A stretch of DNA of 64,000 bases, from contig JBFXEV010000001.1 of assembly GCA_050179755.1 (NCBI GenBank), forward strand, positions 265,994 through 329,993, given 5' to 3'. Below the pieces are notes generated by a model. The model saw only the letters and a program-made list of their open reading frames with translations, was not told where the DNA came from and did not search any database. The DNA is from Candidatus Babeliales bacterium (lineage in GTDB: Bacteria; Babelota; Babeliae; Babelales; JBFXEV01). Both the position numbers and the translations under genes were made by a program. Below, piece after piece: positions 7,164-56,658 of the stretch. Positions within the stretch are counted from its first letter, which is position 1. The number at the start of each line of letters is the position of its first letter.

Positions 7164-7658
7164 ATGAAACATTATATAGTGTTCTCACTCATCACTGCAT
7201 CTTTAATACCGTTGCCTACATTGGGCATGGACAACCAAAATAGCCTACAAAGGTTTACGGCACCCGCTCCAGCAGAAAAAGATTCGGTGCTTGTTTATCG
7301 CGACAATAGAGTTTATGTGGACATGACCAGCCAAAATGTCCTACAAAAAAAATTAAACGCACTCGCTACCGCAGAAAAAGTTTCTGTGCTTCTTAATGAT
7401 GGCAGCCATGCTATGATAGAAGGTAAATTGGCTCTTGACGTGCGCGATGCTATAATCACAACAATAGGCAGCATATATATAGAAGAAGATGGTTCTGTGC
7501 AAATTACAAAATGCTTGCCTTCTCAGATCACTTTGCCCATGACAACCCCACAATCTAATACTCCATGGCATCATGGAACACTGGGCGCTGCTCTTACGTT
7601 TGGCACGGGAGCTCTTGCCGCTTATTTATTATTGAAATGTAAAGACAGCAGCGAATAA
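7164..7658 (+). CDS. Hypothetical secreted protein with C-terminal TM tail
   Basis: Signal peptide TLG|MD, C-terminal GAALTFGTGALAAYLLLKCK. Confidence 0.75.
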   Translation: MKHYIVFSLITASLIPLPTLGMDNQNSLQRFTAPAPAEKDSVLVYRDNRVYVDMTSQNVLQKKLNALATAEKVSVLLNDGSHAMIEGKLALDVRDAIITTIGSIYIEEDGSVQITKCLPSQITLPMTTPQSNTPWHHGTLGAALTFGTGALAAYLLLKCKDSSE

Positions 7659-7769
7659 CAACATATTTATGGGTGAAACTCCCCGATTCAAGTTTTGCCA
7701 TATATAATCAGTAAGAATCGTGCTATTTTTTAATTTATCACTCTAGAAATTCAGCTTTTCATACGATTG

Positions 7770-8268
7770 ATTCCTCCACGCGCCTTCCGGCCAGGTTGAG
7801 ATCTTTTGTTTGCTCAAAAGACCTCAACCAAAAGAGCCTGCAAGGATAGCCATCCTTGCATATCCTGCGTTTTGGCTTTTCCTCTAGCGAACTTTTTTGA
7901 AAGTTCTAAGAGTTAAATCAAAACGGTCAAAGCCTCACAGTATCAAAGAAATTTAGAATTTGCCAATATGTTTATGATGAATGCAAGAAAAATACATGAT
8001 AAACAAGAAAACATACACCTACTCACGCGCTGAAGAATAATGCAATGCACTTTTTGATAATGAATTCCTTGGCCGTTTAACCCGGACTCTTAGCACTTTT
8101 TTGAGTTCCGAAAAAGTGCGCCGGAGGAGTATTTAAACGCCGGATATATAAACCTGGAAGGTTTATGGGCCCTTTGGAATTGAAAGGGCTTTGGGCAAGC
8201 AAAGCCCGTCACTTGCCCGGGGAGGGCCGAAGCTGTAAAATATGAAATATAACTAACGGCCTTGAATT
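7770..8268. other. Highly structured non-coding element (candidate ncRNA or MITE)
   Basis: Many hairpins in a 690-bp intergenic gap with no ORF of 60 aa or more. Confidence 0.5.
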
Positions 8269-8349
8269 TAACTCTGCCCCTTTATTGCATAATGCATCGC
8301 TCCGGAGTAAACTTACGGCAGTAATTTATTATTCAATAAAGGAACCCCT

Positions 8350-8733
8350 ATGAAACACTTACTCACCGCAATCTTTATGGGAACATCTTTAATAATTGCT
8401 TCTGCTTCAGCAATGGACAAAGATGACTGGGGCCATAAAGGCTATTTACTTGCAACTGTAGCAGACGATAATTTAAACATTGTTAATGCGCCTAAAGCAT
8501 GGGCTCATTTATCAAAAACAGAACAACGCTTAAGGTTGGGTGCCCCTCTTACAAAGCTAACATATGAAGGTGAGCGCGAGCATCCCACATCAGTTACTGT
8601 AGATTGTGCTGAGTTAAACTTAGGCCAACAAGGCGGATCGCGACTTCGTACACTACTCACTCATGGTGCTACCTTTGCAGCCGGAGCAGCTCTCTGCTTG
8701 CTTATTACAAAGAATATGAAAAGTCCTGAATAA
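8350..8733 (+). CDS. Hypothetical secreted protein with C-terminal TM tail
   Basis: AAGGA RBS, signal ASA|MD, tail HGATFAAGAALCLLITK. Confidence 0.78.
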   Translation: MKHLLTAIFMGTSLIIASASAMDKDDWGHKGYLLATVADDNLNIVNAPKAWAHLSKTEQRLRLGAPLTKLTYEGEREHPTSVTVDCAELNLGQQGGSRLRTLLTHGATFAAGAALCLLITKNMKSPE

Positions 8734-8753
8734 TAACAGTAAAAAGGAATATT

Positions 8754-9584
8754 ATGAATCACGTAACAAAATTCGCTGCTCTAAACATTTTAGTATTTAC
8801 TGCACATTCCTATGGCATGCTGGCAGGCGGGGACATAGCAAGTTTTGGCTCAGTATCTCAACGAACCGTTGATCATTCAGATCGCTGTAACCCCAGGTTA
8901 ACAATCGATGCATCAAATCCGTCTGTTTTTCCACCAACTGACACCAAAGAACATAAGTCTTGCGATAAACTAGCGCTGCTAAGATCAACACCACTTGATA
9001 ACATAAAAGTTATAAACCTACCAGATGATTATGAACTTACTGACGGTAATAAACAATTTTTAGTACTACAACTTATGGCAGCCGAAGATGCTGTCACTGT
9101 TGATACTGAAAATCAAAGTATGCTAATTATTGATGCTTCAAAAACCTATGCCCTTTCAGATGTATCTGAAGAGGAAGATGATGAAGACATTGTTTCTTGC
9201 CCATTAGCCACACCTGTTGCAAGATTAGACCGATTACTACAAGCTGAGCCAGAAGAAATTGAATTAGTAAGCAATGGAAAACTTTATTTAGATTCACCCA
9301 AAAATAAAACGTTAGTTAGAAATAGTGCGCTTGCATTCTTTAACAACTTACTAAATACAGTCGTAGAAACCGAAGATGGTAGATTAGCTGTTGATGTTGG
9401 ATCTTTAACTCTCTTGCTACGCTCTTGCCAAGCTGAAGCTTTAACAGGATCTACACCATCTGCACAACCAAGCCCTCGCAGGAAACGTATTCAAGAACTA
9501 TTATTTAATAAAGTAACGCTTGTAGGAGCTACAGCAATTCTCACATGGATTGCGGCAAAAAACTTTGGGGCATCTGGCGAGTAA
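8754..9584 (+). CDS. Hypothetical secreted protein, duplicated domain, C-terminal TM tail
   Basis: AAGGA RBS, signal SYG|ML, acidic linker, tail VTLVGATAILTWIAAK. Confidence 0.78.
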   Translation: MNHVTKFAALNILVFTAHSYGMLAGGDIASFGSVSQRTVDHSDRCNPRLTIDASNPSVFPPTDTKEHKSCDKLALLRSTPLDNIKVINLPDDYELTDGNKQFLVLQLMAAEDAVTVDTENQSMLIIDASKTYALSDVSEEEDDEDIVSCPLATPVARLDRLLQAEPEEIELVSNGKLYLDSPKNKTLVRNSALAFFNNLLNTVVETEDGRLAVDVGSLTLLLRSCQAEALTGSTPSAQPSPRRKRIQELLFNKVTLVGATAILTWIAAKNFGASGE

Positions 9585-9601
9585 ATTGTAATAAAGGTTA
9601 A

Positions 9602-10813
9602 TTGGTGAAGATGCTTTACGTAAGCCTGATATGCCTTGCATTCTATGCACATACATGCAACGCAATGCTTAGTAAGCGTAAAGCATCTGTACCACAACCT
9701 ACTGAAGTTGCGCCCACTGTGCAGCTGCATCCTGCAGATGATCCACTCACCCGGCAATTACGGAAAGTATTGTGCCGCGAGCCTGATTATTTTTCACAAG
9801 AAGATGATGATTATCAAGAAGACGATGCAAATGAACCGGCATTGCAAATGGTAAGTGATACTCCCACCGTGATTGCAAGCCCGCCTCTTAGAGAGACATG
9901 CGATGCGTCACCTTTCTCTGGCCAAACATCGCCCTATAATTTTGGATCACCCACCGCGCAATCGCCAGCGCCAATTGCAGCGCCAATACAACGCGCAAGG
10001 ATACCGCGCAGTTTATCGGCAAGTACATTGCATAGCTCTACAAACTCACTTAGTGATAAAGTGAAAGATCTTGTGCGGCAATCAGGATGCAAAGCATGCA
10101 CCGAGACCTATCACGGCAGAAATGAACTTGGCCTTGCAGTTGAATGGCTTGCAACATTACCAGCAGAACAAATCCAATTTAGGGGCGGCAACTTAGACGC
10201 ACGTCAAGAAGAACAATTACTTGGTTTATTAAGATCTCTTTCAAAATCAGTTACAACAAATAGTAGGACTGATGATGATACTGAAAAAATATTCGTAGAT
10301 CTTAGTATACTCAATTATTTGCCGCAATTAGCTATTGCAGCACCAACACCGCATACACCGGAACCAAAACCAGAAGTATCTCTTGCAGAACTTAATGCGC
10401 GCCATTTGTTTACAATAGAGCCTGCAAATATTCTTTTAAAGAAAGATGGTCAAGTACAATCAACAACTTTGGCGCAAAAAACACTCGCACGAGATTTTAT
10501 ATTGCAAGCTCTCCATGCTATTTCTGTAAAAGAAGATGGCAATTTGATAACTCTCTATATTGATCTTGATCACATGCCAAAAGATACCAAAGTGCCCGGA
10601 ACACCACCCACAAAAAGTATTAGGCGAACAACTAAAAACGGAGACAACCTTCCATTGGTGACAACATCTGAATCAACAAGAACACATATACCCACAAGCG
10701 CGCCAAAAGCTGTGCCGCAAACTAATTTGATTGCGCACTACGCGCCGAGCGTGCTCAAAGGGGCCAGCCTAATTGCGCTTGGTTATTTATTTGCACAGTT
10801 CATGCATAAATAA
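9602..10813 (+). CDS. Hypothetical secreted Ser/Pro-rich protein with C-terminal TM tail
   Basis: Signal CNA|ML, long low-complexity region, tail GASLIALGYLFAQFMHK; start could be 9605 or 9611. Confidence 0.78.
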   Translation: MVKMLYVSLICLAFYAHTCNAMLSKRKASVPQPTEVAPTVQLHPADDPLTRQLRKVLCREPDYFSQEDDDYQEDDANEPALQMVSDTPTVIASPPLRETCDASPFSGQTSPYNFGSPTAQSPAPIAAPIQRARIPRSLSASTLHSSTNSLSDKVKDLVRQSGCKACTETYHGRNELGLAVEWLATLPAEQIQFRGGNLDARQEEQLLGLLRSLSKSVTTNSRTDDDTEKIFVDLSILNYLPQLAIAAPTPHTPEPKPEVSLAELNARHLFTIEPANILLKKDGQVQSTTLAQKTLARDFILQALHAISVKEDGNLITLYIDLDHMPKDTKVPGTPPTKSIRRTTKNGDNLPLVTTSESTRTHIPTSAPKAVPQTNLIAHYAPSVLKGASLIALGYLFAQFMHK

Positions 10814-10900
10814 ACTTTATTATAAAAGCCCAATTATTGCCTTTACCTTTTGCAGTTATTTACACTAAAAGTAACTTGTCTTAGGAAATAAAGGGCTTAT

Positions 10901-11188
10901 ATGAAGAAACTAATTTTTGCTGTATTTTGTGCATGCACAGTCATTAATCACGCAAGTTCAATGGATAAAACTCAGCAAATCATGAGCACAAATTACACTC
11001 CACTAGAAAAAGATACGCCAGTTATTGTTCTGGATGCAAATATACTTGCAGCAGCACGTGACCACAGGCAAGCTCGGTTACTTATTGCCCGGCAAACAGC
11101 AACCAATTTTGCCACAATACTCGGTGGCGTTGAAACACTCATTAAAGAAATGCGTGCAGAAAATCAGCGCCATGAAGTTGCTGAATAA
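10901..11188 (+). CDS. Small hypothetical secreted protein
   Basis: MKK signal peptide ASS|MD; purine-rich RBS. Confidence 0.72.
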   Translation: MKKLIFAVFCACTVINHASSMDKTQQIMSTNYTPLEKDTPVIVLDANILAAARDHRQARLLIARQTATNFATILGGVETLIKEMRAENQRHEVAE

Positions 11189-11252
11189 AAAAATCTAAAT
11201 TATACTCATGCACAGATTGTATTCACGTAACCTTAAATCTACAGGGTCTAAT

Positions 11253-12440
11253 ATGCTCTACAAAAAGGTTGTTTTCTATACTACCATCTCTCTTATTGCA
11301 CAGCATCCATTTGCTGTATCGGCAATGGATAGTCACTCAGAAAAAGAAATTGCGAGCAGAAACGCTGCCACCCTGTTTTCATTATATCTTAACCTCAATC
11401 AGCCCCGCGCTGCATCATCATCTATTACTCGCTCTCAAAGCGATCTTAAGCTTATAAACGCTGCAAAGCTCAATGACCTTGGAGAAGTACTTAGAAGTCT
11501 ACAGTTACATGCTACAATGAACCCTCAAGGCGCAGATACAACGGCACTTATTGAAGCCTGTAAGCATAAGGATAATAATGAAGATTTAGTAGCATTTTTA
11601 CTCTTAAATGGCGCAGACCCCAACCTGGTTGATGCACAGGGGCGCGCTCCGCTGCATTTTGCAGCCCTCTCTAATCATACAACAGTACTTGATAAACTTA
11701 AAAAAGCAGGCGCTAAGCTAGATGCTCAGGATGCCGAAGGCAATACGCCCTGCCACGTGGCGTCACGCAACCAAGTGATCAATGCATACTACTGGCTTTC
11801 TGAGTCAGGAGCAAATTTGAATGTAAGAAATAGAAGAGGATTAACGCCTTTGCATGAAGCTGTGCTCGGCACATGCATCTGCTCATATGCAGGATTGCCC
11901 AAATGCGGCGCAAGCCTTGCTGTAACATCTCATGCGTCTGAATTACCCCAGGCACCATTGCCTGCAGGATCAACAGTTTTCCACGCATCAGTAACTATAC
12001 CTATATTTAATAAAACCATGCAAAGATCTTTTATTGCACAAAGCTTATTCCCTGACGATCTCGCTCAAATTATAACTGGCCTATTGAAGTCACCAAACAA
12101 AGAAATGGCAAAAATTGGGCAAAGCGCTTTACAAGAAAGAGCGGCAAATTTGCAAGAAATACTGCGTAAACAGGATGCAAATGGTCATACAGCATACATG
12201 AAAGAAACAAGCTATAATGCAAATAATGTGCCATCACCTGATACGTTTCTGGACCCTGCAGCGTATGAGTTGCATTTTGAACCATTTGTAGCAGCACTAA
12301 GAACTAATACAATGCATACTTTACCTCAAAACAACGTATTTAAAGTAGCTTATGAACACGCGCTGCCTAAACCGGAAGAGAAGAAAACTTTAGGGGCTGC
12401 AGTAGTTAGCGCTGTAAGCGATAATTGCGTTATTTGCTAA
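11253..12440 (+). CDS. Secreted ankyrin-repeat protein with C-terminal CaaX (CVIC)
   Basis: Ankyrin repeats (GRAPLHFAA, GNTPCHVA, GLTPLHEAV); signal VSA|MD; ends C-V-I-C-stop; start re-assigned to 11253. Confidence 0.85.
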   Translation: MLYKKVVFYTTISLIAQHPFAVSAMDSHSEKEIASRNAATLFSLYLNLNQPRAASSSITRSQSDLKLINAAKLNDLGEVLRSLQLHATMNPQGADTTALIEACKHKDNNEDLVAFLLLNGADPNLVDAQGRAPLHFAALSNHTTVLDKLKKAGAKLDAQDAEGNTPCHVASRNQVINAYYWLSESGANLNVRNRRGLTPLHEAVLGTCICSYAGLPKCGASLAVTSHASELPQAPLPAGSTVFHASVTIPIFNKTMQRSFIAQSLFPDDLAQIITGLLKSPNKEMAKIGQSALQERAANLQEILRKQDANGHTAYMKETSYNANNVPSPDTFLDPAAYELHFEPFVAALRTNTMHTLPQNNVFKVAYEHALPKPEEKKTLGAAVVSAVSDNCVIC

Positions 12441-12450
12441 GAATCATAAG

Positions 12451-12484
12451 AATAAGACGTGCAACAAAGTATGCACGCCTTATT
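12451..12484. terminator. Hairpin after the ankyrin gene
   Basis: aataagacgtgca / tgcacgccttatt. Confidence 0.5.
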
Positions 12485-12579: not shown

Positions 12580-13059
12580 TTACTTGGTTAATCTTCTGTT
12601 AGTCCGATATTGCATCAGTAGATCACGCATCTCTGGTTTACTCCATACGTGTGTTGCCTCTATCGGCGTATAGCGTTGGCCAGTTGATTGGCCAATAAAA
12701 CTAGTAGCCGCATCGGGTGAGCAACCAGCATTAAGGCATATAAGCGCATCATCAACCGAGTTATTGCGCACTGCCATGAGTAATCTGTCTGGCAATACTG
12801 TTTTGCATTCAACTCTTTCTTGTGCTTCCAAAACGCCTTCAACATTGGTTGAAGTCCTTATCACTTTCTCTAATTGCGCTTGGTCAGATGATAGCAAATA
12901 CTTGCCTAAGGCAACACCTGCTGCCATAGTGCCAACTATAAATACCGGCGGTGATTGCAATACACTGGTGAGACTATGATCATCCATTGCCTTGAGAGAT
13001 TGCAATGGCATGCAGATATTCATTATTACTAAACCAGATAGCGCAAGATGTTTTTTCAT
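12580..13059 (-). CDS. Secreted protein with TM helix and degenerate ankyrin-like repeat
   Basis: MKKHL signal LKA|MD, TM FIVGTMAAGVALG, LLMAVRNNSVDDALICLNAGCSPD; start re-assigned to 13059. Confidence 0.68.
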   Translation of the reverse strand: MKKHLALSGLVIMNICMPLQSLKAMDDHSLTSVLQSPPVFIVGTMAAGVALGKYLLSSDQAQLEKVIRTSTNVEGVLEAQERVECKTVLPDRLLMAVRNNSVDDALICLNAGCSPDAATSFIGQSTGQRYTPIEATHVWSKPEMRDLLMQYRTNRRLTK

Positions 13060-19847: not shown

Positions 19848-20195
19848 ATGAAAAAAATATTTTTCTCAGTACTAACAATTGCTTTAATTGCAAACGTATC
19901 TGAAATATATGCAATGAAGAAAATAATAGAAAAAAAAGCCCCCGCTGAGACGAAAAAACAAGAACCACCTCCTACAGTAAAACCAACGACTCCAGCAGCA
20001 AAACCGACTACTCCGTCAGCGCCAGCTGCTAAGCCAAGCACACCGGCAACATCAGGACCACTTTCTAACGCGGCTGCAGAAGGAGAGCTGGTAAAAGTAG
20101 AAGACGCAATTGCAGCAGCAGTGGGAGCTGCATCTGGAAATGATAAAGCTGTAATAAAAACGAGAATCGTTAAAGCTGCACAAGCTGCTGCTTAA
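19848..20195 (+). CDS. Small secreted Pro/Ala/Lys/Thr-rich protein
   Basis: AAGGAG RBS, signal IYA|MK, KPTTP repeats. Confidence 0.78.
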   Translation: MKKIFFSVLTIALIANVSEIYAMKKIIEKKAPAETKKQEPPPTVKPTTPAAKPTTPSAPAAKPSTPATSGPLSNAAAEGELVKVEDAIAAAVGAASGNDKAVIKTRIVKAAQAAA

Positions 20196-21544: not shown

Positions 21545-22336
21545 TTACTTTCTAGCTTGTTTTCTTGCGGCATTATCTGCTGCAATACGTGCCAAACCAG
21601 TAAGTTTTTTAGGTTGAGTTTTAGTAGTAGCTACAGATTCAGTTTCTTTAGTTGCAGTAACTGAATGAATAACTGGTTCTTGAGCTGCTGGTTGTTCAAC
21701 TTGCGCTACTGGAGCTACTGGTTGTTCAACTGGAGCTACAACCGCTGGTTGTTCTGCTACTGGAGCTGGTTTAACTACAGCTTGACCTAAAACTCGTTCA
21801 ACTACTACTAGAGTCTTTGGTTCAGCTGCAGGAGCAACTGTTTTTTCAACAATTGTGTTTACAACTGGAGCTACTGGAGCTACTGGTTGTTCAACTTGAG
21901 TTGCTGGAGCTGGTTGTTCAACTGGAGCTACTGGAGCTGCTGCTGTTCCTGTTGTATCTTGTGGATTTACAGTAATAGCTTTAGGAGCTCTGTACACATC
22001 CCATACAATTTTACCGCCCATTACAACAAAACCTGCAGTAAAACCTGCTTTGATTAATTGCTCAGGCGTAAAATTAGACATGCTCGTTGGAAGAGTTGCT
22101 AATATTGCTGAACCAATGTTCTTCAAACCTTGAAGTGCATACGCACCATTAGCTTTTAAAGAATCAAATCTTCCTGCAACAACTTCTACAACTGGAGCTG
22201 TTTCAGCTGCAGTTGCTACTGTTGTTACAACAACATCCGCTTCAAGAGCTGGCATGTCAGCGAAATCCATTGCAAAACCTGCAAACGGAACTGATAGTAA
22301 TGTAACCAACAAGGTTACTTTAGAGAGAGAGTTCAT
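21545..22336 (-). CDS. Secreted protein with TM helix and Pro/Val/Ala/Glu/Gln repeats
   Basis: GGAGG RBS, signal GFA|MD, TM AGFTAGFVVMGG, VEQPVAP repeats. Confidence 0.78.
   Translation of the reverse strand: MNSLSKVTLLVTLLSVPFAGFAMDFADMPALEADVVVTTVATAAETAPVVEVVAGRFDSLKANGAYALQGLKNIGSAILATLPTSMSNFTPEQLIKAGFTAGFVVMGGKIVWDVYRAPKAITVNPQDTTGTAAAPVAPVEQPAPATQVEQPVAPVAPVVNTIVEKTVAPAAEPKTLVVVERVLGQAVVKPAPVAEQPAVVAPVEQPVAPVAQVEQPAAQEPVIHSVTATKETESVATTKTQPKKLTGLARIAADNAARKQARK
21680..21940 (-). repeat. Coding short-unit repeats (actggagct / ggttgttcaac) encoding VAPV/VEQP
   Basis: Repeated units visible in both DNA and protein. Confidence 0.7.
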
Positions 22337-23204: not shown

Positions 23205-25739
23205 TTACTGTCCATGGCATTTCTTATATTTCTTGCCAGAGCCACAATGGCACGGGTCATTGCGCCCCACCTTATCTTCATCACGCACTATAGGGCCAGC
23301 AGGTTCTTGTGGGCCTTCGCTTGCTACCATTTTAAGGTCTTCAAGCTCTTGCTCACGGCGCTGCTCAATAGCATGCGCATCAAAACGAGCAAGATCTATA
23401 TGGAATAAACGGTGCACCACGTCCCAACGAATCTGACGCATCATATCTTGGAACATATAAAAGGCTTCTCGTTTATATTCTATAAGAGGGTTCTTTTGGC
23501 CCCAACTACGCAAATTAATACCTTCTTTAAGATGATCAAGGTTGAGCATATGCTGCTTCCATGCCTGGTCAATGGTTTCTAGCATGAGCCATTTTTCTGC
23601 ATTCTCAATCATATCTTGCGGTTGGCTGCCTCTATGGAGCTCATACTTCATGAGCAAGAAATCAGCAAGCGCATTTTCAAGTTCGTCACTCGTTGCTGCT
23701 TTACCCACTTCAGCTTTAATTTCTTCAAGCGGCAAACCAGTTATCGCTTGCACCATGCCAAGTATTTTATCTACTTGTTCGGTTGTCACTGCACGAGTTG
23801 GGCAACACACTTCTATCATGCCCTGCACAGCACCAATGAGCATGTCACGCACTAAAGCGTACATATTCTCATCGCCCTCAAGCACGCTGCGGCGATAGCT
23901 ATAAATGACAATACGTTGTTGGTTCAAAACATCATCGTATTCTAATAAATGCTTACGAATTTCAAAGTTATGTTTTTCAACTTTTTCTTGAGAACGTTCA
24001 ATAGTTTTTGAAATGAAACGAGATTCTATTGTTTCATCTTCGGTCATACCAACACGCTCCATATTCTTTTTGATAGTGTCACCCGCAAAAATGCGAATAA
24101 GATCATCTTCCAAAGATATATAGAATCGTGATTCACCAGCATCGCCTTGACGGCCAGAACGGCCTCTCAACTGATTATCAATACGGCGTGATTCGTGGCG
24201 CTCTGTGCCAAGCACGTATAAACCGCCTGCCATTTTTGAATCAGGTGTAAGTTTAATATCGGTACCACGGCCTGCCATATTAGTGGCAATTGTTACACGC
24301 CCTGGCTCACCTGCATACTGAATAATTTCAGCTTCACGTTCATGCTGTTTTGCATTGAGCACTTCGTGCGGCACGCCAGCGGCTTTTAATATGTGTGATA
24401 ATAATTCAGACGTTTCAATAGCAATAGTACCAATAAGCACAGGCTGGCGCTTGAGATGCCGCTCTTTAATATCTTGTGCTATTGCTTTATATTTTGCATT
24501 TTTAGTAAGGAAAATTAAATCAGCTTGATCAATACGTGCAAGCTGCTCATGTGTTGGCACTGAAATAACATCAAGTTTATAAATCTTATGGAATTCTTCT
24601 GCTTCTGTTGCTGCAGTACCGGTCATACCAGCAAGCTTTTTATATAATCTAAAGAAGTTTTGTAAGGTGATGCTTGCAAGCGTTTGGCTTTCACGAGCCA
24701 CTTTTACTGCTTCTTTTGCTTCAAGCGCTTGATGCAAACCATCTGAATATCTACGGCCACTTAATATACGGCCCGTAAATTCATCCACAATTAATACTTC
24801 CCCATCGCGCACCACGTAATCAACATCTATTTTAAAGAGCGTATTAGCGCGTAATGCTTGCGTAATGTGATGAAGCAAATTAAGATTCTGCACTGCATAG
24901 AGATTATCAATACCAAGAGCAGCTTCTACTTTATCGTTACCAGATTCAGTCAATTGCACGGAACGTGCTTTTTCATCAATTTCATAGTCTTCAGTTTTCA
25001 CCAAACGGCGCACTACTTTATCTGCTTTTTCATAAAGATCGCTGCTTGCATCGCCCCCACCAGAAATAATAAGTGGCGTACGTGCTTCATCAATCAAAAT
25101 GGAGTCAACTTCATCAACGATCGCATAATTTAGATCACGCTGTACATAATCTGAAAGTTTGTGCTTCATGTTATCGCGCAGATAATCAAAACCCAACTCA
25201 TTGTTGGTAGCATACATAATATCTGCTTGATACACTTCTTTGCGCTCTTCGTCAGACATATCATGCTTGAGCGCAGCACACGTGAGCCCTAACGCAGTAA
25301 AGATTTTACCCATCCACGCAGCATCACGATTGGCCAAATAGTCGTTAGTGGTCACCAAGTGAGCACCTTTGCCAGGAAGCGCATTAAGATAGAGTGGAAG
25401 CGTTGCGGTGAGCGTTTTACCTTCACCAGTTTTCATTTCTGCAATTTTGCCTTGATGGAGCACTATGCCACCCATGAGCTGTACGTCATAATGACGCTCG
25501 CCAAGAACTCTGCGCGCAGCTTCTCGCACCACGGCAAATGCCTCTGGCAGAAGATCATCAAGAGTTTCACCTTGCATTAACCGTTCGCGAAATTCATTTG
25601 TTTTTGCTTTAAGCTGCTCATCAGAAAGCGCTTTAATTGACGGCTCAAACGCATTTATTTTATCTACAATGGGTTGGAGTTTACGTAACTGACGGGCATT
25701 ATTAGTGCCCAGAATTTTGGCCAAAAGAGCTGTTATCAT
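23205..25739 (-). CDS. secA: Preprotein translocase subunit SecA
   Basis: MKTGEGKT, IVDEVDSILIDEARTPLIISG, TNMAGRGTDI, QLRGRSGRQGD, SEC-C zinc motif. Confidence 0.98.
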   Translation of the reverse strand: MITALLAKILGTNNARQLRKLQPIVDKINAFEPSIKALSDEQLKAKTNEFRERLMQGETLDDLLPEAFAVVREAARRVLGERHYDVQLMGGIVLHQGKIAEMKTGEGKTLTATLPLYLNALPGKGAHLVTTNDYLANRDAAWMGKIFTALGLTCAALKHDMSDEERKEVYQADIMYATNNELGFDYLRDNMKHKLSDYVQRDLNYAIVDEVDSILIDEARTPLIISGGGDASSDLYEKADKVVRRLVKTEDYEIDEKARSVQLTESGNDKVEAALGIDNLYAVQNLNLLHHITQALRANTLFKIDVDYVVRDGEVLIVDEFTGRILSGRRYSDGLHQALEAKEAVKVARESQTLASITLQNFFRLYKKLAGMTGTAATEAEEFHKIYKLDVISVPTHEQLARIDQADLIFLTKNAKYKAIAQDIKERHLKRQPVLIGTIAIETSELLSHILKAAGVPHEVLNAKQHEREAEIIQYAGEPGRVTIATNMAGRGTDIKLTPDSKMAGGLYVLGTERHESRRIDNQLRGRSGRQGDAGESRFYISLEDDLIRIFAGDTIKKNMERVGMTEDETIESRFISKTIERSQEKVEKHNFEIRKHLLEYDDVLNQQRIVIYSYRRSVLEGDENMYALVRDMLIGAVQGMIEVCCPTRAVTTEQVDKILGMVQAITGLPLEEIKAEVGKAATSDELENALADFLLMKYELHRGSQPQDMIENAEKWLMLETIDQAWKQHMLNLDHLKEGINLRSWGQKNPLIEYKREAFYMFQDMMRQIRWDVVHRLFHIDLARFDAHAIEQRREQELEDLKMVASEGPQEPAGPIVRDEDKVGRNDPCHCGSGKKYKKCHGQ

Positions 25740-30939: not shown

Positions 30940-32586
30940 TTATGGTTTTTCTGTATACAGTGTACCCGTATCAAACAAAAATCGATATTCATTCTCAATC
31001 TTGCCACGCCAACGATATCTAAAATGTTCGTTGTGATTTGCGTCTAACTTTTTTGCACATGTTCGAGTAATTTGATACGCACATTTTCCTTCTCGATCTT
31101 TCAAAAGTAATAGCTTTTGTAACCATGCCATATGTTGCTCGGTGTGTTCTTGGATTAATTTTTCTTTATCAAGAATTGCACCAAAAGAACCTGGAGTAAG
31201 TTCAATTCGCTCAGTTAACTTACGCTGCACTTCAAACGGCACAGTACGCACAACATCACTTACTGGCATGCAACCAATCATTTTTCCCCAAGGCATGTGA
31301 TAAAGCATATCACCAAATACGTACGCCATAATATAAATACGTACGTCAATCGGCAAGTTTTTGCAATATCTTTTAAGCGCACACAAACTCACAAATAATG
31401 CTTGCTGTGCCATTGCTACATTCTCTCGGTTTGAGCGCACTACACGAGGATATACAAGCATTGCTTTTAGTAATGTCCTTAATTTATCTTCTCTTGGGGC
31501 GTTATGCGGCAGATCTTTGCTTGCGAGCTCATAAATTACGGTGCGCCCTCTGTTATCTTGTATATCGCACTCAGCACCACCAGCCAGCAGCACATGCATT
31601 TTTTCTGCGCTATCAGCAAACCATAGTGCTGTGCGGCCTAGGTAATCCTGCCAGTTTACATCAACACCTAATGAACAAAGATATTCACTCATAGCAGGTG
31701 GCGCTATTTGCAACCCTAGATGAAAAGGAAAACTCTTATGATAATCAAGCCATATGTCTGCAACAACTTCTCTTTCTTTATCAAGTAAGATTTTAACGGC
31801 TTGACCAAAAGATAAAGCTTTTCTTTGCTCTTGTTGCATCAGTAACCGACGCCGCTCAATAAGCTGAATCAATGCATCTTTATTGCCAAGTTCAATGGCT
31901 TGAAAGAGTGCTTGATTTGTCACAGAAGCCCCTTGCTCTAATAAAAATGCAACTTTTGCTGGTCGTCTTCTTATTGCATATTCAAGCGGCGTTTCCTTTG
32001 TACCGTCAATCCAATCTGCTTCATCAATATCCGCACCGTATTTTAGCGCACATGCAATTTGTTGCTGTGTGCCTTTTTTTAACGTAATGTGAAATACTCG
32101 ATCAAATATCTGGCTGTCATGTGCTGCAATATGCGTTGCAAGTATGAGATCACGTATTTCATCACTATTGTTATAATTAAACGCAATCTCTACATCATCT
32201 GTTTTTGGCACGCAACCACTATTAAGCAGTGCTTTGCATGCATCCGCTTTCCCGTGTTGTAAGGCAGACCCTAATGGTTTATCTATTGGAAGATCATAAG
32301 TCCGTCTCCTTAGGTGCCTCTCCGGATCAACGCCTAAGCCAATAAGGTCTGTTATTTTTTGACCATCATCTTGTTGTATTGCCTGCTCAAGTTCTTTGTA
32401 TAATTGGTTGCTCTTCCACCAAAACCATAGAGGAGTGGTTATGTTGGTGCGCATCCATACCTTCACACCACCATCACAACAATATTTTTTATCTCGTTTT
32501 GTAACAACCTGATTCTTGGTATTCATGGCTAACGTTAATTGCCCGATACAGAGAAACATCATGATTGCTGCATAAAGTGATCGCAT
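30940..32586 (-). CDS. Secreted ankyrin-repeat protein with F-box-like motif
   Basis: Signal TLA|MN, ankyrin repeats (ETPLEYAI, GRTALWFA), KNLPIDVRIYIMAYV after the repeats. Confidence 0.8.
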   Translation of the reverse strand: MRSLYAAIMMFLCIGQLTLAMNTKNQVVTKRDKKYCCDGGVKVWMRTNITTPLWFWWKSNQLYKELEQAIQQDDGQKITDLIGLGVDPERHLRRRTYDLPIDKPLGSALQHGKADACKALLNSGCVPKTDDVEIAFNYNNSDEIRDLILATHIAAHDSQIFDRVFHITLKKGTQQQIACALKYGADIDEADWIDGTKETPLEYAIRRRPAKVAFLLEQGASVTNQALFQAIELGNKDALIQLIERRRLLMQQEQRKALSFGQAVKILLDKEREVVADIWLDYHKSFPFHLGLQIAPPAMSEYLCSLGVDVNWQDYLGRTALWFADSAEKMHVLLAGGAECDIQDNRGRTVIYELASKDLPHNAPREDKLRTLLKAMLVYPRVVRSNRENVAMAQQALFVSLCALKRYCKNLPIDVRIYIMAYVFGDMLYHMPWGKMIGCMPVSDVVRTVPFEVQRKLTERIELTPGSFGAILDKEKLIQEHTEQHMAWLQKLLLLKDREGKCAYQITRTCAKKLDANHNEHFRYRWRGKIENEYRFLFDTGTLYTEKP

Positions 32587-51253: not shown

Positions 51254-53752
51254 ATGCATACAGTACAGAATTATAAAGCACTTATATTTCTTTCCACCTT
51301 TCTATCAATTTCAGCAGCCCCACCGTCTACCACACTTGAAAATACTACCTGCTTGCCATCTTTTGCCTGCAATAACCTTAAGGCTCGTAAAATAATAGGT
51401 GATACCATCACGGCAAACGAGCAATTAACGGTGCAAGGCACCTTAGACTTGCGCAATGTTCATACCGTTACGCAACCACAATCATGCACTGACGAATGCC
51501 ATATACCCCAACAGCCGATCATTCATAAAAGTGCACAAAGAGCTGGTTGCCCAAACCTAGTATGCGCAGATATTATAAAAGCAAACACCATTACGGCAAA
51601 TACAATTATTGCGCGTGATCGGTTGATTGTTCAAAACACATTAGATTTAAGCGGGGTTACCAATATTATTGCACCCGAAACATGCTTTACCTGCAACAGT
51701 ATTCCGTGCATTGACAGCAACGCTTGCTATGTATTCCAACAATTATGCCAACCCATTGATTCAATAACAGGTTGCGCTGCAAGTAGCCAAGCTGTCATTG
51801 ACCTGCGAAATCAATATAGTAATGCAATTCTTGCCATCTCTCCCCAACAGAGTGCGCTCCAATTTTTCACTACCGGCTCCGGCCAATTCATAGTACCACC
51901 ATCTGGTGACATGACGGAAATTGCTCAGTGGCAACAATGGACTCCTGATGCAGTGGCTCAGCAAGTGGCATTAAGTGAAGCGACGCGCCAAGCACTTATC
52001 AATGTAAACATACCTAATATGTTTGAACAAGAGCGCCAAGAACTAATCTCACTTGGTTTTAATTATATTTGGTGGCTTGCAGACCCACGCAGAATGCAAC
52101 ATTCTGCAGCAACGGTGGTAAGCAGCTCGTTTGACAGTATGGGCGGTGCATTTGGAATCTTTTTTAACTTAACAGGCGTCAATCAGTTCTCGCCAGTGTT
52201 TGGTCTTGATTTGACTATTCTATCATGGAATAATTACGCAGAATCTTTGCGTCAGTTCACTGAGTACTTGGAACTTGGACTTGCAAACAATATTGTGTAT
52301 TCAACCGTTGATCTTGAAAATGTGCGGTCTCTTTATGCGCAAAGCACTGAAGAACCAACGCCAATTGTTGATACGATTGCGTTTGAACCATTTTTAATGG
52401 GCACGCCAGAGCAACAAGCTGCTGGTATTGCAGCATTTCAAAACGTGCGTGATGCAACGGCTCCAATTCTTGACCTGCTTGCAGTTGGTGGCGCCTATGA
52501 TACAGCAGTGCAAACTATTCGTAATCCACTTATTGCGCCCGGGCTTTCAGCACCACTTATGCCAGATGAAGTTAAGTTAGTGCAATATCCTTTTGCATTG
52601 AACGTTATAGCAAATACTACGCAAACTCCCGCTCAAATTCAGCAAACTGGCTTTGAACAAGTAGCACTCATTGAGGCGCAAATTGTTGAAGTGGTGCAAA
52701 ATTTTATTGATCCAACGGTAACAGATTGGGATAATTTTATTAATCGCTATCGGTTTGATCCAGCATTTAGAGCGCAGTTTGTCATTGATGTAACGGTGCA
52801 GGAATATTTGGATGAACTTGAAAAAAATGTCTATGATGCGTGGTCAACCGCAATTAAAGCATTTGATCATTTTCCTAGTGCTCCAGTGGAAGTGCAATTG
52901 TTCCCAGGCTTTGGTGCAGCATTCTATACGCCACCCACCATACAGCAAGATGGTACTGCATCAGTAGTACTCACGAACGGTATTTATAATTCACCATCAC
53001 TTTCTGATACCAATCCAATCGACTATAATGAAATTATTACTGTTGATAGATCATTTGACTCTTCTACGGTATTTCATGAAACGATTCCTGGGCATCATTT
53101 ACAAATAGCTATGCTGGTTGAGCTTGCATGCCAACTGGCCACACCATTCAATAATGGTGCATTTGAAGGTTGGGCAGTCTATGCAGAACAAGTTGCAGCC
53201 AACGATATGATGCTGGCACTTCCTGATCAGGAACCATTTAAGCGTCTTGATTTCTTGAGCGCACGATTATTCAGAGCAGCACGCTTGGTTGTTGATACAG
53301 GACTTCATGAATTTGAAATGAGCAGACCAGAAGCAATAGATTATTTCTTCTTTAACTCTCTTGAAGTAGTACCATTTATTGAATCTGAAGTTGATCGTTA
53401 TATAACGTGGCCAGGTCAAGCAGTAGGCTATTTAATAGGCGCTTTAGATCTTGAAAATGAACGTATGCGCGCACAAACTGAACTTGGACCGCTCTTTAAT
53501 TTGCGTGAATGGCATGACGTGTTAATTAGATATTTGGCACCGGTAGAATTACTTATTACACAACTGACAGATTTTTATATCAGCAGAAAAGAAGCTGGCA
53601 CCTTTGCACTCGTATGGCCGCCTATAATTCCACAACCAAGAAGAAGTCCGCTGCTTAATATTACCACGTTACCAGCGTTAAATATAAAAGGTGTGAATAT
53701 AGACAAACTGTTGTCACAACATCCACTTAGATTATTTACGTATCCTGCATAA
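51254..53752 (+). CDS. Secreted DUF885-family protein (putative metallopeptidase) with N-terminal Cys-rich repeats
   Basis: HETIPGHHLQ, EGWAVYAE, RAARLVVDTGLH, EVDRYITWPGQA. Confidence 0.85.
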   Translation: MHTVQNYKALIFLSTFLSISAAPPSTTLENTTCLPSFACNNLKARKIIGDTITANEQLTVQGTLDLRNVHTVTQPQSCTDECHIPQQPIIHKSAQRAGCPNLVCADIIKANTITANTIIARDRLIVQNTLDLSGVTNIIAPETCFTCNSIPCIDSNACYVFQQLCQPIDSITGCAASSQAVIDLRNQYSNAILAISPQQSALQFFTTGSGQFIVPPSGDMTEIAQWQQWTPDAVAQQVALSEATRQALINVNIPNMFEQERQELISLGFNYIWWLADPRRMQHSAATVVSSSFDSMGGAFGIFFNLTGVNQFSPVFGLDLTILSWNNYAESLRQFTEYLELGLANNIVYSTVDLENVRSLYAQSTEEPTPIVDTIAFEPFLMGTPEQQAAGIAAFQNVRDATAPILDLLAVGGAYDTAVQTIRNPLIAPGLSAPLMPDEVKLVQYPFALNVIANTTQTPAQIQQTGFEQVALIEAQIVEVVQNFIDPTVTDWDNFINRYRFDPAFRAQFVIDVTVQEYLDELEKNVYDAWSTAIKAFDHFPSAPVEVQLFPGFGAAFYTPPTIQQDGTASVVLTNGIYNSPSLSDTNPIDYNEIITVDRSFDSSTVFHETIPGHHLQIAMLVELACQLATPFNNGAFEGWAVYAEQVAANDMMLALPDQEPFKRLDFLSARLFRAARLVVDTGLHEFEMSRPEAIDYFFFNSLEVVPFIESEVDRYITWPGQAVGYLIGALDLENERMRAQTELGPLFNLREWHDVLIRYLAPVELLITQLTDFYISRKEAGTFALVWPPIIPQPRRSPLLNITTLPALNIKGVNIDKLLSQHPLRLFTYPA

Positions 53753-53872: not shown

Positions 53873-54577
53873 CTAAGCATTGTCGCTTGTAAATTGTCCT
53901 TCATAAGCAAATGTTTCCACCGGCTTTCTTGTGGATGGCGTTTCCCGTGCACGCATTTCCTCCGGTAAATTTTCAATAGCGCCAGGTTTTCCTAATGCCA
54001 CCATTGCTTCTACCGTATAACCATCCGGTATATTGAGCACTTCTTTTGCTTTTGCATAATCAAAACCACCCATGCCATGTGCAATCAGCCCCATGCTTGC
54101 AGCTTGGAGTGCCAGATTTTGCCATGCAGCACCCGTATCAAATGAATGCGTGCGATTTGGCCGCTGTGAATCCGTTACATCTTTAGAAAGAATAACCATT
54201 AATACTGCAGCATTATGTGACCATTTCTTGTTAAAATCCACGAGCAAATTAAAAAACGTATCCCACGCAGGCGTGCCTCGCTTGGCATACACAAAACGCC
54301 ATGGCTGATTGTTGCTTGACGATGGCGCCCAACGTGCAGCTTCAAATAACTGCATTAGTTCTTGATCAGAAAGTAATTCGCCTGAAAATGCGCGCGGTGA
54401 CCAACGATGCAACAGTAATGATTCAATGGGGTAAGCACATTGCCGCTCAGTAATGCGCAAGGCACTTGGAGCATTTTCAAGAACTTGTTCTTTGTCTTCT
54501 TGCATCTTACCGCATCCGGTAAGCAAAGATACTGAAACTGCACTTATACAAAGCATGTGTACTATTTTTTTAGACAT
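53873..54577 (-). CDS. Nitroreductase family lipoprotein
   Basis: Lipobox LLTGC; RWSPRAF, AARWAPSSSNNQPWRF, HGMGGFD. Confidence 0.9.
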   Translation of the reverse strand: MSKKIVHMLCISAVSVSLLTGCGKMQEDKEQVLENAPSALRITERQCAYPIESLLLHRWSPRAFSGELLSDQELMQLFEAARWAPSSSNNQPWRFVYAKRGTPAWDTFFNLLVDFNKKWSHNAAVLMVILSKDVTDSQRPNRTHSFDTGAAWQNLALQAASMGLIAHGMGGFDYAKAKEVLNIPDGYTVEAMVALGKPGAIENLPEEMRARETPSTRKPVETFAYEGQFTSDNA

Positions 54578-54655
54578 TCTTTTTTTTCCTTACAGCAAAT
54601 CCATGTTCAAATACTTAGAAAGTGTAACAGTAAGCAAAAAAATATACGAGTATCG

Positions 54656-55228
54656 TTAACTTGAGAACGTTCCTTCAAAAACGAATGACTCAATTGGCTG
54701 TCTATCCGATGGCTCTTCACGCTCTTGCAACTTTTTAGGCAAGTCTTTAACATTACCTGGTTTGCCAATCGCACACATAGCTTCTAAAGAATAGCCCTCA
54801 GGAATATGCAAATCCTTCGTTGCTTTTGCATAATCAAAACCTTCCATGCCATGAGCAACCAACCCCATAGAAAATGCTTGTAATGCCAAATTTTGCCACG
54901 CAGCGCCGGTACAAAATGAATGTGTACGGATGTTATATCCTTCTTTTGTTTTTTCTTGCGAAATCATAATTATAAGTACTGCAGCATTTTTTGCCCATAT
55001 TTTATTTTCATCAACAAGCAAATTATACAAAGTATCCCATGCTTGCGTATCTCGCTTTGCATATATAAATCGCCATGGTTGATTATTATATGATGATGGC
55101 GCCCAACGTGCAGCCTCAAACAATGTCATAAGATCTTGATCAGAAATTGTTTCGCCGGATAGTGCACGCGGCGACCAACGTTTGAGAATTAACGGTAATA
55201 CAGGATATGGTGATGTGCGCTGCTTCAT
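54656..55228 (-). CDS. Nitroreductase family protein (cytoplasmic)
   Basis: RWSPRAL, AARWAPSSYNNQPWRF, HGMEGFD. Confidence 0.92.
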   Translation of the reverse strand: MKQRTSPYPVLPLILKRWSPRALSGETISDQDLMTLFEAARWAPSSYNNQPWRFIYAKRDTQAWDTLYNLLVDENKIWAKNAAVLIIMISQEKTKEGYNIRTHSFCTGAAWQNLALQAFSMGLVAHGMEGFDYAKATKDLHIPEGYSLEAMCAIGKPGNVKDLPKKLQEREEPSDRQPIESFVFEGTFSS

Positions 55229-55328
55229 GAAATACTCCTCTGAAATATTTTCTTTAAAATTAACGCTTGTAACTCTGCTCTAAATGAAGTATAACTAATT
55301 ACAACACAAAATACATCAAAGGATCAGC

Positions 55329-56051
55329 ATGCACTCTCTACTTCTTCTTGCAATCATTCTTCCTCTCTCATGTTTTTGTTCTACTGTACAGCCCCCCACA
55401 CTAACACAAGCACCAACTATTATTATACATACTTCTGCAGACGCGGTCAGTCATCTGGCCAATGTAAATAAATTACACGTAATTCAAGAATCACATTCCA
55501 CCAATATACAACACCTATTTGCTCAGGCACGTGATACATCACAAGAATATGCATACGGTATACTCAGTTGGGTCAATCAGCATAAAATTAAAACTGCTTG
55601 CTATGGCGCACTGCTTGGTTATGGCTATATCTGGTATAAGTTAGCCTCTCTAAATTATGCTTTAATGCAGGCCACTAACTGGTCAAAATGGCGTGAAACG
55701 CTTTCACTTGAAGAATTGCTGGCAAAGCCGCAACAAGAAATTGCAAAAGACTTATTAACTGCTATTCAAAAGCAGTATACTACTCCAGAACAATTTGATG
55801 ATCTTTTAAGCCCGTTGATTGCTTTTGTGCGTGATGTAGATACAGAACTACAAGAATTGCGACAATTAGTACATCTGCATACGTGGATTGATCGGTTGCA
55901 TATTGCGTTTTTGTTTCCCAAACAATCAAGTTTACTTGCGCAGGCACACGACAATATAAACCGCTTAACCTATTTAAAAAATGTATTGCTTAATTGGATG
56001 AGTCAGCACAAGGTTGCTCGTCTGAACTCGGTGACGACCCCCTTGTTATAG
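55329..56051 (+). CDS. Hypothetical protein (signal peptide plus internal TM)
   Basis: Long ORF with AAGGA RBS and hydrophobic N-terminus. Confidence 0.7.
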   Translation: MHSLLLLAIILPLSCFCSTVQPPTLTQAPTIIIHTSADAVSHLANVNKLHVIQESHSTNIQHLFAQARDTSQEYAYGILSWVNQHKIKTACYGALLGYGYIWYKLASLNYALMQATNWSKWRETLSLEELLAKPQQEIAKDLLTAIQKQYTTPEQFDDLLSPLIAFVRDVDTELQELRQLVHLHTWIDRLHIAFLFPKQSSLLAQAHDNINRLTYLKNVLLNWMSQHKVARLNSVTTPLL

Positions 56052-56658
56052 ATTCACCTGAAGAACTATCAACACCTTCAAGAGAAAGTAATCTTGCCAA
56101 ATTAGTTGGCGGTGGCTCGAAGCTCACTAATAATGCAGCAAACTCCTTAGAGCCTGCTTCTTGCGGGCCTACATCCGGAAGACTCTCACGCGTTATTGGA
56201 GCCACTGTGATAACTGAATTATCATGTTTTACTACAAATGTTGTATCTTCTTTAGGATGCGCAAAGCAGTTTTGTGCTAATGTCTGACTATCGTGAACAT
56301 CTTTAATCAGTAACATATGAGTCACTGCTGGAAATTGAGGCGGCAAAACCGCAATAATTCCTTTATTGGTGCACGGAATATACACTTTACGCTCTTGCCC
56401 ACTATGTTCCTGGGCAGTATCTATGTGCGCAAACACCGGTTGCTTCAAAATATTAACTACCGTAATAAGTCTGGAAGTTCCAGCGCCGCTCTTTGCACAA
56501 TCAGCATGCGCTTGCACCAATGCAACTACGCGCTCATGCAACTCTTGAGCTAGTGCCGCTAATTTTTCACCTTCTGAAAGATCACCTTCCATGGCCACAA
56601 GTGAACCAAAAGACAACAAGAAAATGTAGTAAATAGATCTTTGCATTGCATCCCCCAT
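55990..56658 (-). CDS. Hypothetical secreted protein with Ser-rich tail
   Basis: Signal LVA|ME; 3' end overlaps the convergent gene. Confidence 0.68.
   Translation of the reverse strand: MGDAMQRSIYYIFLLSFGSLVAMEGDLSEGEKLAALAQELHERVVALVQAHADCAKSGAGTSRLITVVNILKQPVFAHIDTAQEHSGQERKVYIPCTNKGIIAVLPPQFPAVTHMLLIKDVHDSQTLAQNCFAHPKEDTTFVVKHDNSVITVAPITRESLPDVGPQEAGSKEFAALLVSFEPPPTNLARLLSLEGVDSSSGESITRGSSPSSDEQPCADSSN

Follow-up and report, generated by a model that had tools for sequence, protein, structure and literature searches.

Methionine directly follows the predicted signal peptidase cleavage site in about half of the predicted exported proteins of a Babeliales bacterium and its closest relative

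Signal-peptide cleavage sites are among the best-charted sequence signals, and the residue directly after the cut (position +1) is regarded as nearly free. Methionine is normally rare at this position in published signal-peptide statistics. Here we describe a 64,000-nucleotide stretch of DNA from an uncultured, protist-associated Candidatus Babeliales bacterium (phylum Dependentiae; contig JBFXEV010000001.1, positions 265,994 to 329,993; hereafter the window, meaning the whole stretch) in which 11 genes encode a predicted signal peptide followed immediately by methionine. The predicted exported proteins resemble ordinary Sec/signal peptidase I substrates in having a positively charged n-region, a hydrophobic h-region, small residues at -3 and -1, no proline at +1 and an acidic early mature region – but differ in that methionine occupies about half of this clade’s +1 sites and is coupled to aspartate, glutamate or asparagine at +2. 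A literature search found no paper on +1 methionine in signal peptides of Dependentiae, and passages of the Dependentiae genome papers PMC6561590, PMC4378268 and PMC4776705 do not mention the residue after the cleavage site.

Several described systems share parts of this pattern. The Plasmodium PEXEL and oomycete RxLR motifs lie 15-30 residues past the signal peptide, undergo processing by a dedicated protease and are effector-specific. The feature described here is likewise a short motif near the signal-peptide cleavage region that is common to unrelated, fast-evolving secreted proteins, but it sits at +1/+2 and also occurs on outer-membrane barrels. Type IV prepilins are cleaved after glycine, have phenylalanine or methionine at +1 and glutamate at +5, and carry a hydrophobic stretch past the site. 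Their processed N-terminus may thus begin with methionine too, whereas in the proteins described here the hydrophobic stretch comes before the site, and the window’s true pseudopilins are separate genes. AnkB-type ankyrin effectors of Legionella end in a C-terminal CaaX box, lack a signal peptide and use a type IV system. The window gene 11253-12440 and two homologs similarly combine ankyrin repeats with a conserved C-terminal CaaX box (its prenylation is putative) – but 11253-12440 has a Sec signal peptide, and the phylum is reported, in passages of PMC4378268, to have only Sec and a type II secretion system (T2SS).

Anthrax edema factor offers a natural signal-peptide cleavage product that begins with Met-Asn (passages of PMC3755998). 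This Sec-secreted toxin has a mature N-terminal methionine, and inside host cells its activity obeys the N-end rule, which shows that the residue at +1 in a Sec substrate can be of consequence in the host cytosol; in the same passages, methionine and alanine are both listed as stabilising N-terminal residues. Edema factor is, however, a single Gram-positive protein with a dedicated pore-forming partner and not a proteome-wide pattern, and no route into the host cytosol is known for Dependentiae proteins. Within the phylum, passages of the genome papers report predicted signal peptides on 44% of coding sequences and 78% of ankyrin proteins in Chromulinavorax (PMC6561590), signal peptides on 79 of 126 ankyrin proteins in Babela with a T2SS as the sole secretion system detected (PMC4378268), and T2SS components as core to TM6 (PMC4776705).

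A preliminary description, made from this DNA alone, had listed 11 genes with methionine directly after a predicted signal peptidase I site, and we found all 11 coordinates and cleavage contexts to be as given there. In translation, each open reading frame (ORF) begins with a charged n-region, a hydrophobic core and a small-residue c-region and continues with a methionine, whose codon is ATG in all 11:

7164..7658, + strand: orphan, 164 aa, signal peptide 21 aa, C-terminal hydrophobic segment; +1 Met codon 7227-7229
8350..8733, + strand: orphan, 127 aa, signal peptide 21 aa, C-terminal hydrophobic segment; +1 Met codon 8413-8415
8754..9584, + strand: orphan, 276 aa, signal peptide 21 aa, C-terminal hydrophobic segment; +1 Met codon 8817-8819
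9602..10813, + strand: orphan, signal peptide 18 aa; +1 Met codon 9665-9667
10901..11188, + strand: orphan, 95 aa, signal peptide 20 aa; +1 Met codon 10961-10963
11253..12440, + strand: ankyrin-repeat protein (Pfam Ank), C-terminal CaaX box, signal peptide 24 aa; +1 Met codon 11325-11327
12580..13059, - strand: orphan, signal peptide 24 aa, hydrophobic segment right after the cleavage site; +1 Met codon 12985-12987
19848..20195, + strand: orphan, 115 aa, Pro/Ala/Lys-rich, signal peptide 22 aa; +1 Met codon 19914-19916
21545..22336, - strand: orphan, 263 aa, signal peptide 22 aa; +1 Met codon 22268-22270
30940..32586, - strand: ankyrin-repeat protein, 548 aa, signal peptide 20 aa; +1 Met codon 32524-32526
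55990..56658, - strand: orphan, 222 aa, signal peptide 22 aa; +1 Met codon 56590-56592

The ORF 9602..10813 opens at a TTG (9602), and its likely start is the ATG at 9611. Ten of the 11 proteins passed a heuristic for Sec signal peptides (a charged n-region and an uncharged hydrophobic core of at least 8 residues), and 11253 passed by eye when read from its second ATG. Judged by eye, all 11 have small residues at -1 and -3, no proline from -3 to +1 and a site 3-8 residues past the core. BLASTP detected no similarity among the 11 mature parts at E <= 0.01, so that at this sensitivity they are mostly unrelated, as had been claimed; given tandem paralogy, they nonetheless count as fewer than 11 independent events.

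Three other kinds of leader were considered and rejected for these proteins. Lipoprotein (signal peptidase II) signal peptides would have cysteine at +1, which is methionine in 11 of 11; Tat signal peptides would have two adjacent arginines, which by eye occur in 0 of 11 n-regions; and in place of the type IV prepilin arrangement the hydrophobic stretch precedes the site in all 11, N_methyl motifs being present only in 61024-61641 and 61553-61936. Elsewhere in the window, 53873-54577 has a lipobox-like N-terminus.

Relatives of the window were found by searching species-representative genomes with its histidyl-tRNA synthetase (13196-14443) as query. The closest is a ‘Candidatus Babeliales bacterium’ metagenome-assembled genome (MAG; OY970310.1, locus L001), which is 81% identical in this synthetase and syntenic with window positions 7164-23020. 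Loci L002-L006 come from TM6/Dependentiae-like MAGs with 54-63% identity in the synthetase, and the other 74 loci, all from other phyla, served as controls. In the window and L001, an island of orphan genes lies between cdsA and hisS; the distance from the cdsA to the hisS neighbourhood is 3.9 kb in L003 and 0.9 kb in L005.

We curated 30 signal-peptide proteins in the window and found methionine at +1 in 11, followed by leucine (5), alanine (4), phenylalanine (3) and one each of aspartate, arginine, glutamine, valine, threonine, serine and histidine. The preliminary description had allowed that the frequency of +1 methionine might equal background; it lies far above, as methionine makes up 1.99% of the mature parts of these 30 proteins (binomial P = 7e-12; treating the seven-gene island 7164-13143 as a single event gives 1e-4). 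Adding L001 gave +1 methionine in 21 of 44 curated signal-peptide proteins, or 22 after two L001 rows were corrected. The position is exact: at every other position from -12 to +12, methionine occurs in 0-3 of the 44. The residue at -1 is alanine in 32 of the 44, and other residues were counted there by eye in about 8 of 22 proteins with +1 methionine (the Met class) versus 3 of 22 others, a difference that we do not take as evidence of compensation for a poor -1 residue.

Comparison with other phyla relied on a caller of our own, which scores charge and hydrophobicity, applies the -3/-1 rule and ignores the +1 residue; its specificity is modest, judging from the +1 spectrum in the controls. 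This caller placed the site directly before methionine in 8 of the 11 window genes, chose a site 2 residues upstream in 8754 and 3 upstream in 9602, and missed 11253. Across 181 kb of Dependentiae DNA (window plus L001-L006) it called +1 methionine at 20 of 92 sites, versus 6 of 232 in the 74 control loci, which total 1.18 Mb (Fisher P = 1e-7), and the six control matches look like membrane proteins and not signal peptides. By eye, +1 methionine recurs in unrelated proteins of L003 (3), L005 (2), L004 (1) and L002 (1-2), and in none of about 7 signal-peptide proteins of L006. As judged from these sequences, about half of the predicted exported proteins in this organism and its closest relative carry +1 methionine, and this is a real and unusual trait of the lineage.

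Since methionine is also the residue of start codons, the simplest objection is that the internal ATG is the true start and the upstream hydrophobic segment is not translated, as the preliminary description had itself raised. A Shine-Dalgarno-like motif, sought 5-12 nt upstream, was found before 13 of 21 upstream starts (including that of 8350..8733), before 0 of 21 +1 ATGs and before 4 of the 71 remaining in-frame ATGs in these genes. Consistent with this, mean 60-nt folding energy was -5.1 kcal/mol at upstream starts, -10.1 kcal/mol at +1 ATGs and -9.2 kcal/mol at other internal ATGs, with +1 ATGs differing from starts (P = 7e-6) and not from other ATGs (P = 0.29). Four of the 11 upstream starts in the window have no clear Shine-Dalgarno motif, and initiation without one therefore exists in this genome. 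The +1 ATG was rejected as a true or second start: the hydrophobic segments are real, translated Sec-type signal peptides, and the methionine is not the start codon of these genes. In the reading that we favour below, it was not one in the past either.

We compared five pairs of window and L001 orthologs. Their mature parts are about 25-62% identical, and +1 methionine is present in all five and at the same aligned residue in four. N-terminal stretches (signal peptide plus 2-3 mature residues) differ between orthologs at 13 of 27 and 16 of 22 residues, and the diverged signal peptides keep their length, frame and hydrophobicity – as expected of a translated, functional signal peptide. The 16 changes are those of 10901..11188 (a 20-residue signal peptide, +1 and +2), whose ortholog keeps the +1 methionine. 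The ortholog of 12580..13059, 62% identical in its mature part, keeps both the c-region and the +1 methionine, and the weak L001 homolog of 7164..7658, an orphan with no Pfam family, likewise has methionine at +1. For 21545..22336, DNA identity to L001 is 93% over 139 nt at the 5' end (upstream region and signal peptide). At this locus (window 22200-22400 versus L001:1480-1620), the 72 nt from the start of the signal peptide through the +1/+2 codons contain 4 differences. Beyond residue +2 the protein diverges at once, and the neighbouring hisS protein is 81% identical.

Loss of the methionine can be followed in 11253..12440. Alignment with two L001 paralogs (L001:15304-17806) revealed a new signal peptide plus methionine upstream of a degenerate older signal peptide (window 11253-11420), and the degenerate stretch aligns with the signal peptide and methionine that the L001 paralogs still use. 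The old signal peptide, now internal, is less hydrophobic and has lost its methionine. Taken with the ortholog pairs, we infer that methionine is probably kept by selection as part of the cleavage region.

The residue after the methionine is constrained as well. In the window and L001, aspartate, glutamate, asparagine or glutamine occupies +2 in 19 of 22 Met-class proteins versus 6 of 22 other signal-peptide proteins (Fisher P = 2e-4); 8 of the 11 window proteins are among the 19, and over all 44 proteins the +2 residue is aspartate in 15, asparagine in 5 and glutamate in 5. At position 2 of non-exported window proteins the same four residues were counted by eye in 3 of 24, so the unit is a pair of methionine and an acidic or amide residue, unlike native N-termini here. 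N-terminal methionine followed by aspartate, glutamate, asparagine or glutamine is also what defines the NatB substrate class, which at the sequence level accordingly fits 8 of 11 window proteins and 19 of 22 with L001 included. BLASTN of the 44 gene starts (-120 to +90) found no 5' modules shared between non-orthologous genes, only ortholog and paralog pairs, and shuffling of a promoter and signal-peptide cassette between genes was rejected.

The preliminary description had proposed that +1 methionine marks exported effectors and that envelope-resident proteins lack it. Among the latter it counted three paralogous outer-membrane beta-barrel proteins, identified here by an AlphaFold (AF2) model and Foldseek, which serve as comparators:

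14493-16103, + strand: outer-membrane beta-barrel protein
16124-17674, + strand: outer-membrane beta-barrel protein
18133-19755, + strand: outer-membrane beta-barrel protein

The barrel family gave 101 matches, all to Dependentiae-type sequences, and no Pfam match. A model built from 64 homologs is a large beta-barrel (predicted local distance difference test 89.3, predicted template modelling score 0.85) whose best Foldseek matches in the PDB are FapF, FadL, a COG4313 channel and porins. Each of the six related loci has one or two copies close to hisS. The family has a conserved N-terminal motif. The L001 counterpart of 18133-19755 is broken into three ORFs (L001:5090-6226), which may reflect a pseudogene or an assembly error.

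For the window’s own three barrels the claim stands, as none has +1 methionine; it fails for their orthologs in sister genomes. By eye, eight homologs carry +1 methionine (P0002, P0003, P0004, P0005, P0007, P0016, P0023 and P0074), although for three of the eight the caller preferred a site 4 residues upstream (5 in the case of P0074), and another two rows are ambiguous. We built a FastTree phylogeny from 64 aligned rows with N-terminal columns excluded; the alignment is without P0005 and P0016, and 37 of the 101 matches were dropped as fragments or distant rows. Six of the 64 rows have +1 methionine, and five of these group with the window’s paralogs in a 15-row clade (support 100), versus 1 of 49 rows outside it. 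The tree requires at least 4 changes in the +1 methionine state.

The proposal of an effector-specific class fails on this count and on another: some effector-like proteins of the window do not have +1 methionine. These are three short signal-peptide ankyrins (32655, 33264 and 37619) and a family of four genes at 25901-28921 (- strand), one of which has a J-domain; their +1 residues are leucine, alanine or valine. The four tandem paralogs have a conserved signal peptide, a mature start of the form Leu-Arg/Gly-Arg-Leu/Met and Pro/Ala-rich bodies, and a search with one of them (26869-27249) returned the query alone. Their conserved mature start could be a second motif adjoining the signal peptide. 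The member at 25901-26830 ends in a DnaJ J-domain and is a predicted exported J-domain protein.

Other N-termini in the window were also compared. The FtsH-like AAA/M41 protease at 34091-35686 (- strand, 531 aa) has an N-terminus that resembles a cleavable signal peptide and not the usual two-helix anchor, and it and two downstream orphans (35748-36374 and 36442-37353) have phenylalanine at +1. An N-terminal module common to 34091-35686 and 36442-37353 was considered and rejected, as BLASTP gave nothing significant (best E = 1.7). The DUF885 protein (51254-53752) was taken up as a second housekeeping control; among the N-termini of its 12 best matches, only that of P0223 comes from a close homolog (68% identity), and it is apparently truncated.

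Host targeting had been argued from the co-occurrence of +1 methionine with CaaX, F-box-like, ankyrin and tail-anchor features. All three full-length family members (P0102-P0104) retain the CaaX box of 11253-12440 with different residues before it, which argues that at least some signal-peptide proteins meet the host cytosol; the search returned two full-length homologs, the other 118 matches listed (389 were over threshold) being generic ankyrin. The co-occurrence holds for this protein and not for the other 10 of the Met class, which have no CaaX box. The F-box-like feature did not survive: no F-box or PRANC Pfam family was found at E <= 1 in any of the 11, and comparison of 30940-32586 with solved structures gave ankyrin matches only and no F-box. 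In a language-model search, the C-terminal part of this protein scored 0.90 against a viral ankyrin cluster that bears PRANC, with few features in common (120 of 256), which we treat as a weak lead only.

C-terminal hydrophobic segments are indeed present: scanning with a 19-residue hydrophobicity window detects them in 7164, 8350 and 8754, and one was recognised by eye in 9602-10813. They follow a signal peptide, though, and so would be stop-transfer anchors where tail anchors had been proposed. These four consecutive orphans (7164-10813, + strand) have a common layout – a signal peptide, a Gly/Ala-rich hydrophobic C-terminal segment and then a few charged residues – that recalls C-terminal sorting signals as much as tail anchors; no shared motif or sorting enzyme was identified for them.

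The window is a bacterial chromosome segment from an organism known from metagenome assemblies only. By Pfam it encodes SecA, FtsZ/FtsA, TamB, a BamD-like lipoprotein and several aminoacyl-tRNA synthetases, together with T2SS/pilus genes, many ankyrin-repeat genes and many ORFs without a known family. The features relevant to export are:

23205..25739, - strand: SecA (Pfam), motor of the Sec export route that the Met-class signal peptides would use
3361-5166, - strand: GspE-like T2SS ATPase (Pfam), about 53 kb from the GspF/GspG/pseudopilin block
58341..63274, - strand: T2SS or pilus-like gene block (Pfam and N-termini), comprising the following
62051-63274, - strand: GspF-like (Pfam)
61553-61936, - strand: GspG-like, with N_methyl motif (Pfam)
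61024-61641, - strand: pseudopilin-like ORF with N_methyl motif (Pfam)
60645-61046, 59473-60648 and 58341-59498, - strand: pseudopilin-like ORFs without a Pfam match (N-termini)

No secretin gene (GspD) was seen in the window’s Pfam annotation. The T2SS genes are thus present as had been described, but a role of +1 methionine as a T2SS sorting signal is unlikely, since the outer-membrane barrels that carry it are not T2SS cargo; T2SS substrates in general are not known to share a linear signal. Disguise by host acetylation, the other function put forward, is mechanistically doubtful because NatB acts mainly on nascent chains.

Other observations concern the surroundings. A likely toxin-antitoxin pair lies at window 42539-43182 (+ strand), where a Gp49/HigB-like toxin-family gene (PF05973) precedes a 102-aa ORF. 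At the edge of L001 (L001:20-600), ORFs are built entirely from perfectly repeated peptides in tandem (on one strand the unit is 17 residues long), which reflect a tandem DNA repeat with a unit of about 51 bp. The more distant Dependentiae L002 (L002:18042-18719, + strand) and L006 (L006:18711-19289, - strand) encode GNAT-family acetyltransferases with signal-peptide-like N-termini; an exported GNAT acetyltransferase would be odd, as acetyl-CoA is not expected outside the cytoplasm.

We tentatively favour, at slightly less than an even chance, a clade-specific cleavage-site signature, AXA↓M-[D/E/N], that is tied to export or processing and has been amplified in fast-evolving orphan families. 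Under this reading, genuine Sec-type signal peptides would be translated from upstream starts, most of them with a Shine-Dalgarno motif, and a signal peptidase I cut after the AXA-like c-region would leave methionine as mature residue 1, usually followed by aspartate, glutamate or asparagine. The +1 methionine would be a trait of a Babeliales subclade and not the mark of one functional class, appearing in outer-membrane barrels, secreted orphans and ankyrin proteins alike. As it is not confined to one class, its function would be placed at export or processing: it may reflect a P1'/P2' preference of the clade’s signal peptidase or of the Sec step, or provide a generally protective new N-terminus. 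The near-saturation of the island 7164-13143 would be inherited, its tandem families having diverged rapidly. What the sequences show are the predicted signal peptides and sites, the enrichment, its confinement to the clade, the conservation and the lack of initiation signals; that the predicted bond is cut, that selection acts and that the role lies in processing are deduced from these patterns. A role in processing or as a new N-terminus would cover the exact position, the +2 coupling, the conservation, the loss from the internalised signal peptide, the restriction to the clade and the barrels – all but the near-saturation of the island.

Several points weigh against the processing signature. 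All cleavage sites are predictions (from our heuristic and from inspection by eye), those of several barrels are uncertain by 3-4 residues, and an altered S1' pocket in the clade’s signal peptidase is pure conjecture. The spread is very uneven: about 16 of 17 genes of the cdsA-hisS island in the window and L001 carry +1 methionine, as against 0/4, 0/3 and 0/3 in three other signal-peptide groups of the window. A uniform enzyme preference fits this only with paralog inheritance, and the island genes have no homology detectable by BLASTP, so such inheritance is not demonstrated. In the window plus L001-L006, methionine is at +1 in 27 of 60 orphan or effector-like proteins versus 2 of 16 housekeeping proteins (Fisher P = 0.02; tallies made by eye and affected by paralogy, so that counts are not independent). 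This enrichment agrees with the preliminary description, and it is what a destination-linked function predicts. Lastly, methionine is the residue of start codons, which the processing signature leaves as a coincidence.

That destination could be the host. After Sec export and T2SS or vesicle release, Met-Asp/Glu/Asn would shield effectors from the host N-degron pathway or mimic NatB-type proteins, a reading that we consider unlikely, if the strongest of the alternatives. It draws on the match of 19 of 22 Met-class proteins to the NatB substrate class, the CaaX box conserved in all three full-length ankyrin homologs and the excess in orphans over housekeeping proteins. It accounts for the island, the CaaX box and the NatB-like pair, but not for the sister-genome barrels or for the short ankyrins and J-domain family, which start with leucine, alanine or valine instead – leucine being destabilising in the host. 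Passages on cultured Dependentiae add that Sec and a T2SS are the sole reported route and that most ankyrin proteins have signal peptides (PMC4378268, PMC6561590), and edema factor sets the precedent of a Sec-secreted, cytosol-delivered toxin with a mature methionine and N-end-rule activity in host cells (PMC3755998, in passages that also list alanine, the usual +1 residue, as stabilising). N-degron evasion therefore does not explain methionine over alanine. More specific, and improbable in our view, is the idea that AXA↓Met-Asp/Glu/Asn is a dedicated, eukaryotic-looking neo-N-terminal tag that serves effectors once they are in the host, in a phylum with Sec and T2SS only. Such a tag could be a shield from N-degron turnover or a handle for the host’s N-terminal acetylation or recognition machinery, and barrels with +1 methionine would then either insert in membranes of the host or of mitochondria or simply share the preference without such a role.

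The remaining alternatives take the methionine for a start codon or the pattern for an artefact. Young genes might have begun at the methionine and acquired their signal peptide afterwards, either through 5' extension or by capturing a module from upstream, which would explain why the start-codon residue sits exactly at the junction, why orphans are enriched and why 11253 gained a new signal peptide and methionine upstream of an older, degenerate one. We hold this to be improbable, since the methionine persists as its neighbours diverge (5 of 5 ortholog pairs), arose several times within an old barrel family that has had a signal peptide throughout, and is followed by aspartate, glutamate, asparagine or glutamine far more often than the start methionine of non-exported proteins (19/22 versus 3/24); moreover, there are no shared 5' modules, and none of the three full-length ankyrin/CaaX homologs lacks a signal peptide and begins at the methionine. 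Dual initiation, with exported and cytoplasmic isoforms of identical mature sequence made from the two ATGs, would give meaning to the exact +1 position and could draw on initiation without a Shine-Dalgarno motif (4 of 11 upstream starts). It is very improbable: none of the 21 +1 ATGs has such a motif, mRNA structure there equals that of other internal ATGs, and a cytoplasmic outer-membrane barrel would be useless. Relic starts and dual initiation are each contradicted by several results. We give least credence of all to an artefact, in which one ancestral module of signal peptide plus methionine was copied often and sites were chosen because a methionine followed. Seven of the 11 genes do belong to a single tandem island, the shortness of signal peptides defeats homology tests and the caller picked another site in 2 of 11. 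Yet the +1-blind caller still finds 20/92 versus 6/232, P is still 1e-4 with the island counted once, +1 methionine recurs in unrelated proteins of L003, L004 and L005 and in the barrel family, and methionine is rare (0-3/44) at each neighbouring position in the window and L001. Together these readings do not take up the whole probability, and a modest share is assigned to none of them.

If the processing signature or one of its functional rivals is right, +1 methionine points either to an altered preference of the signal peptidase or Sec machinery or to a function of the mature N-terminus, and in Dependentiae each would be a novelty. At such junctions, starts or cleavage sites may be misplaced by gene callers and signal-peptide predictors whose training data come from other phyla. 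The idea is testable by N-terminal proteomics in cultured members of the phylum, if those share the trait.

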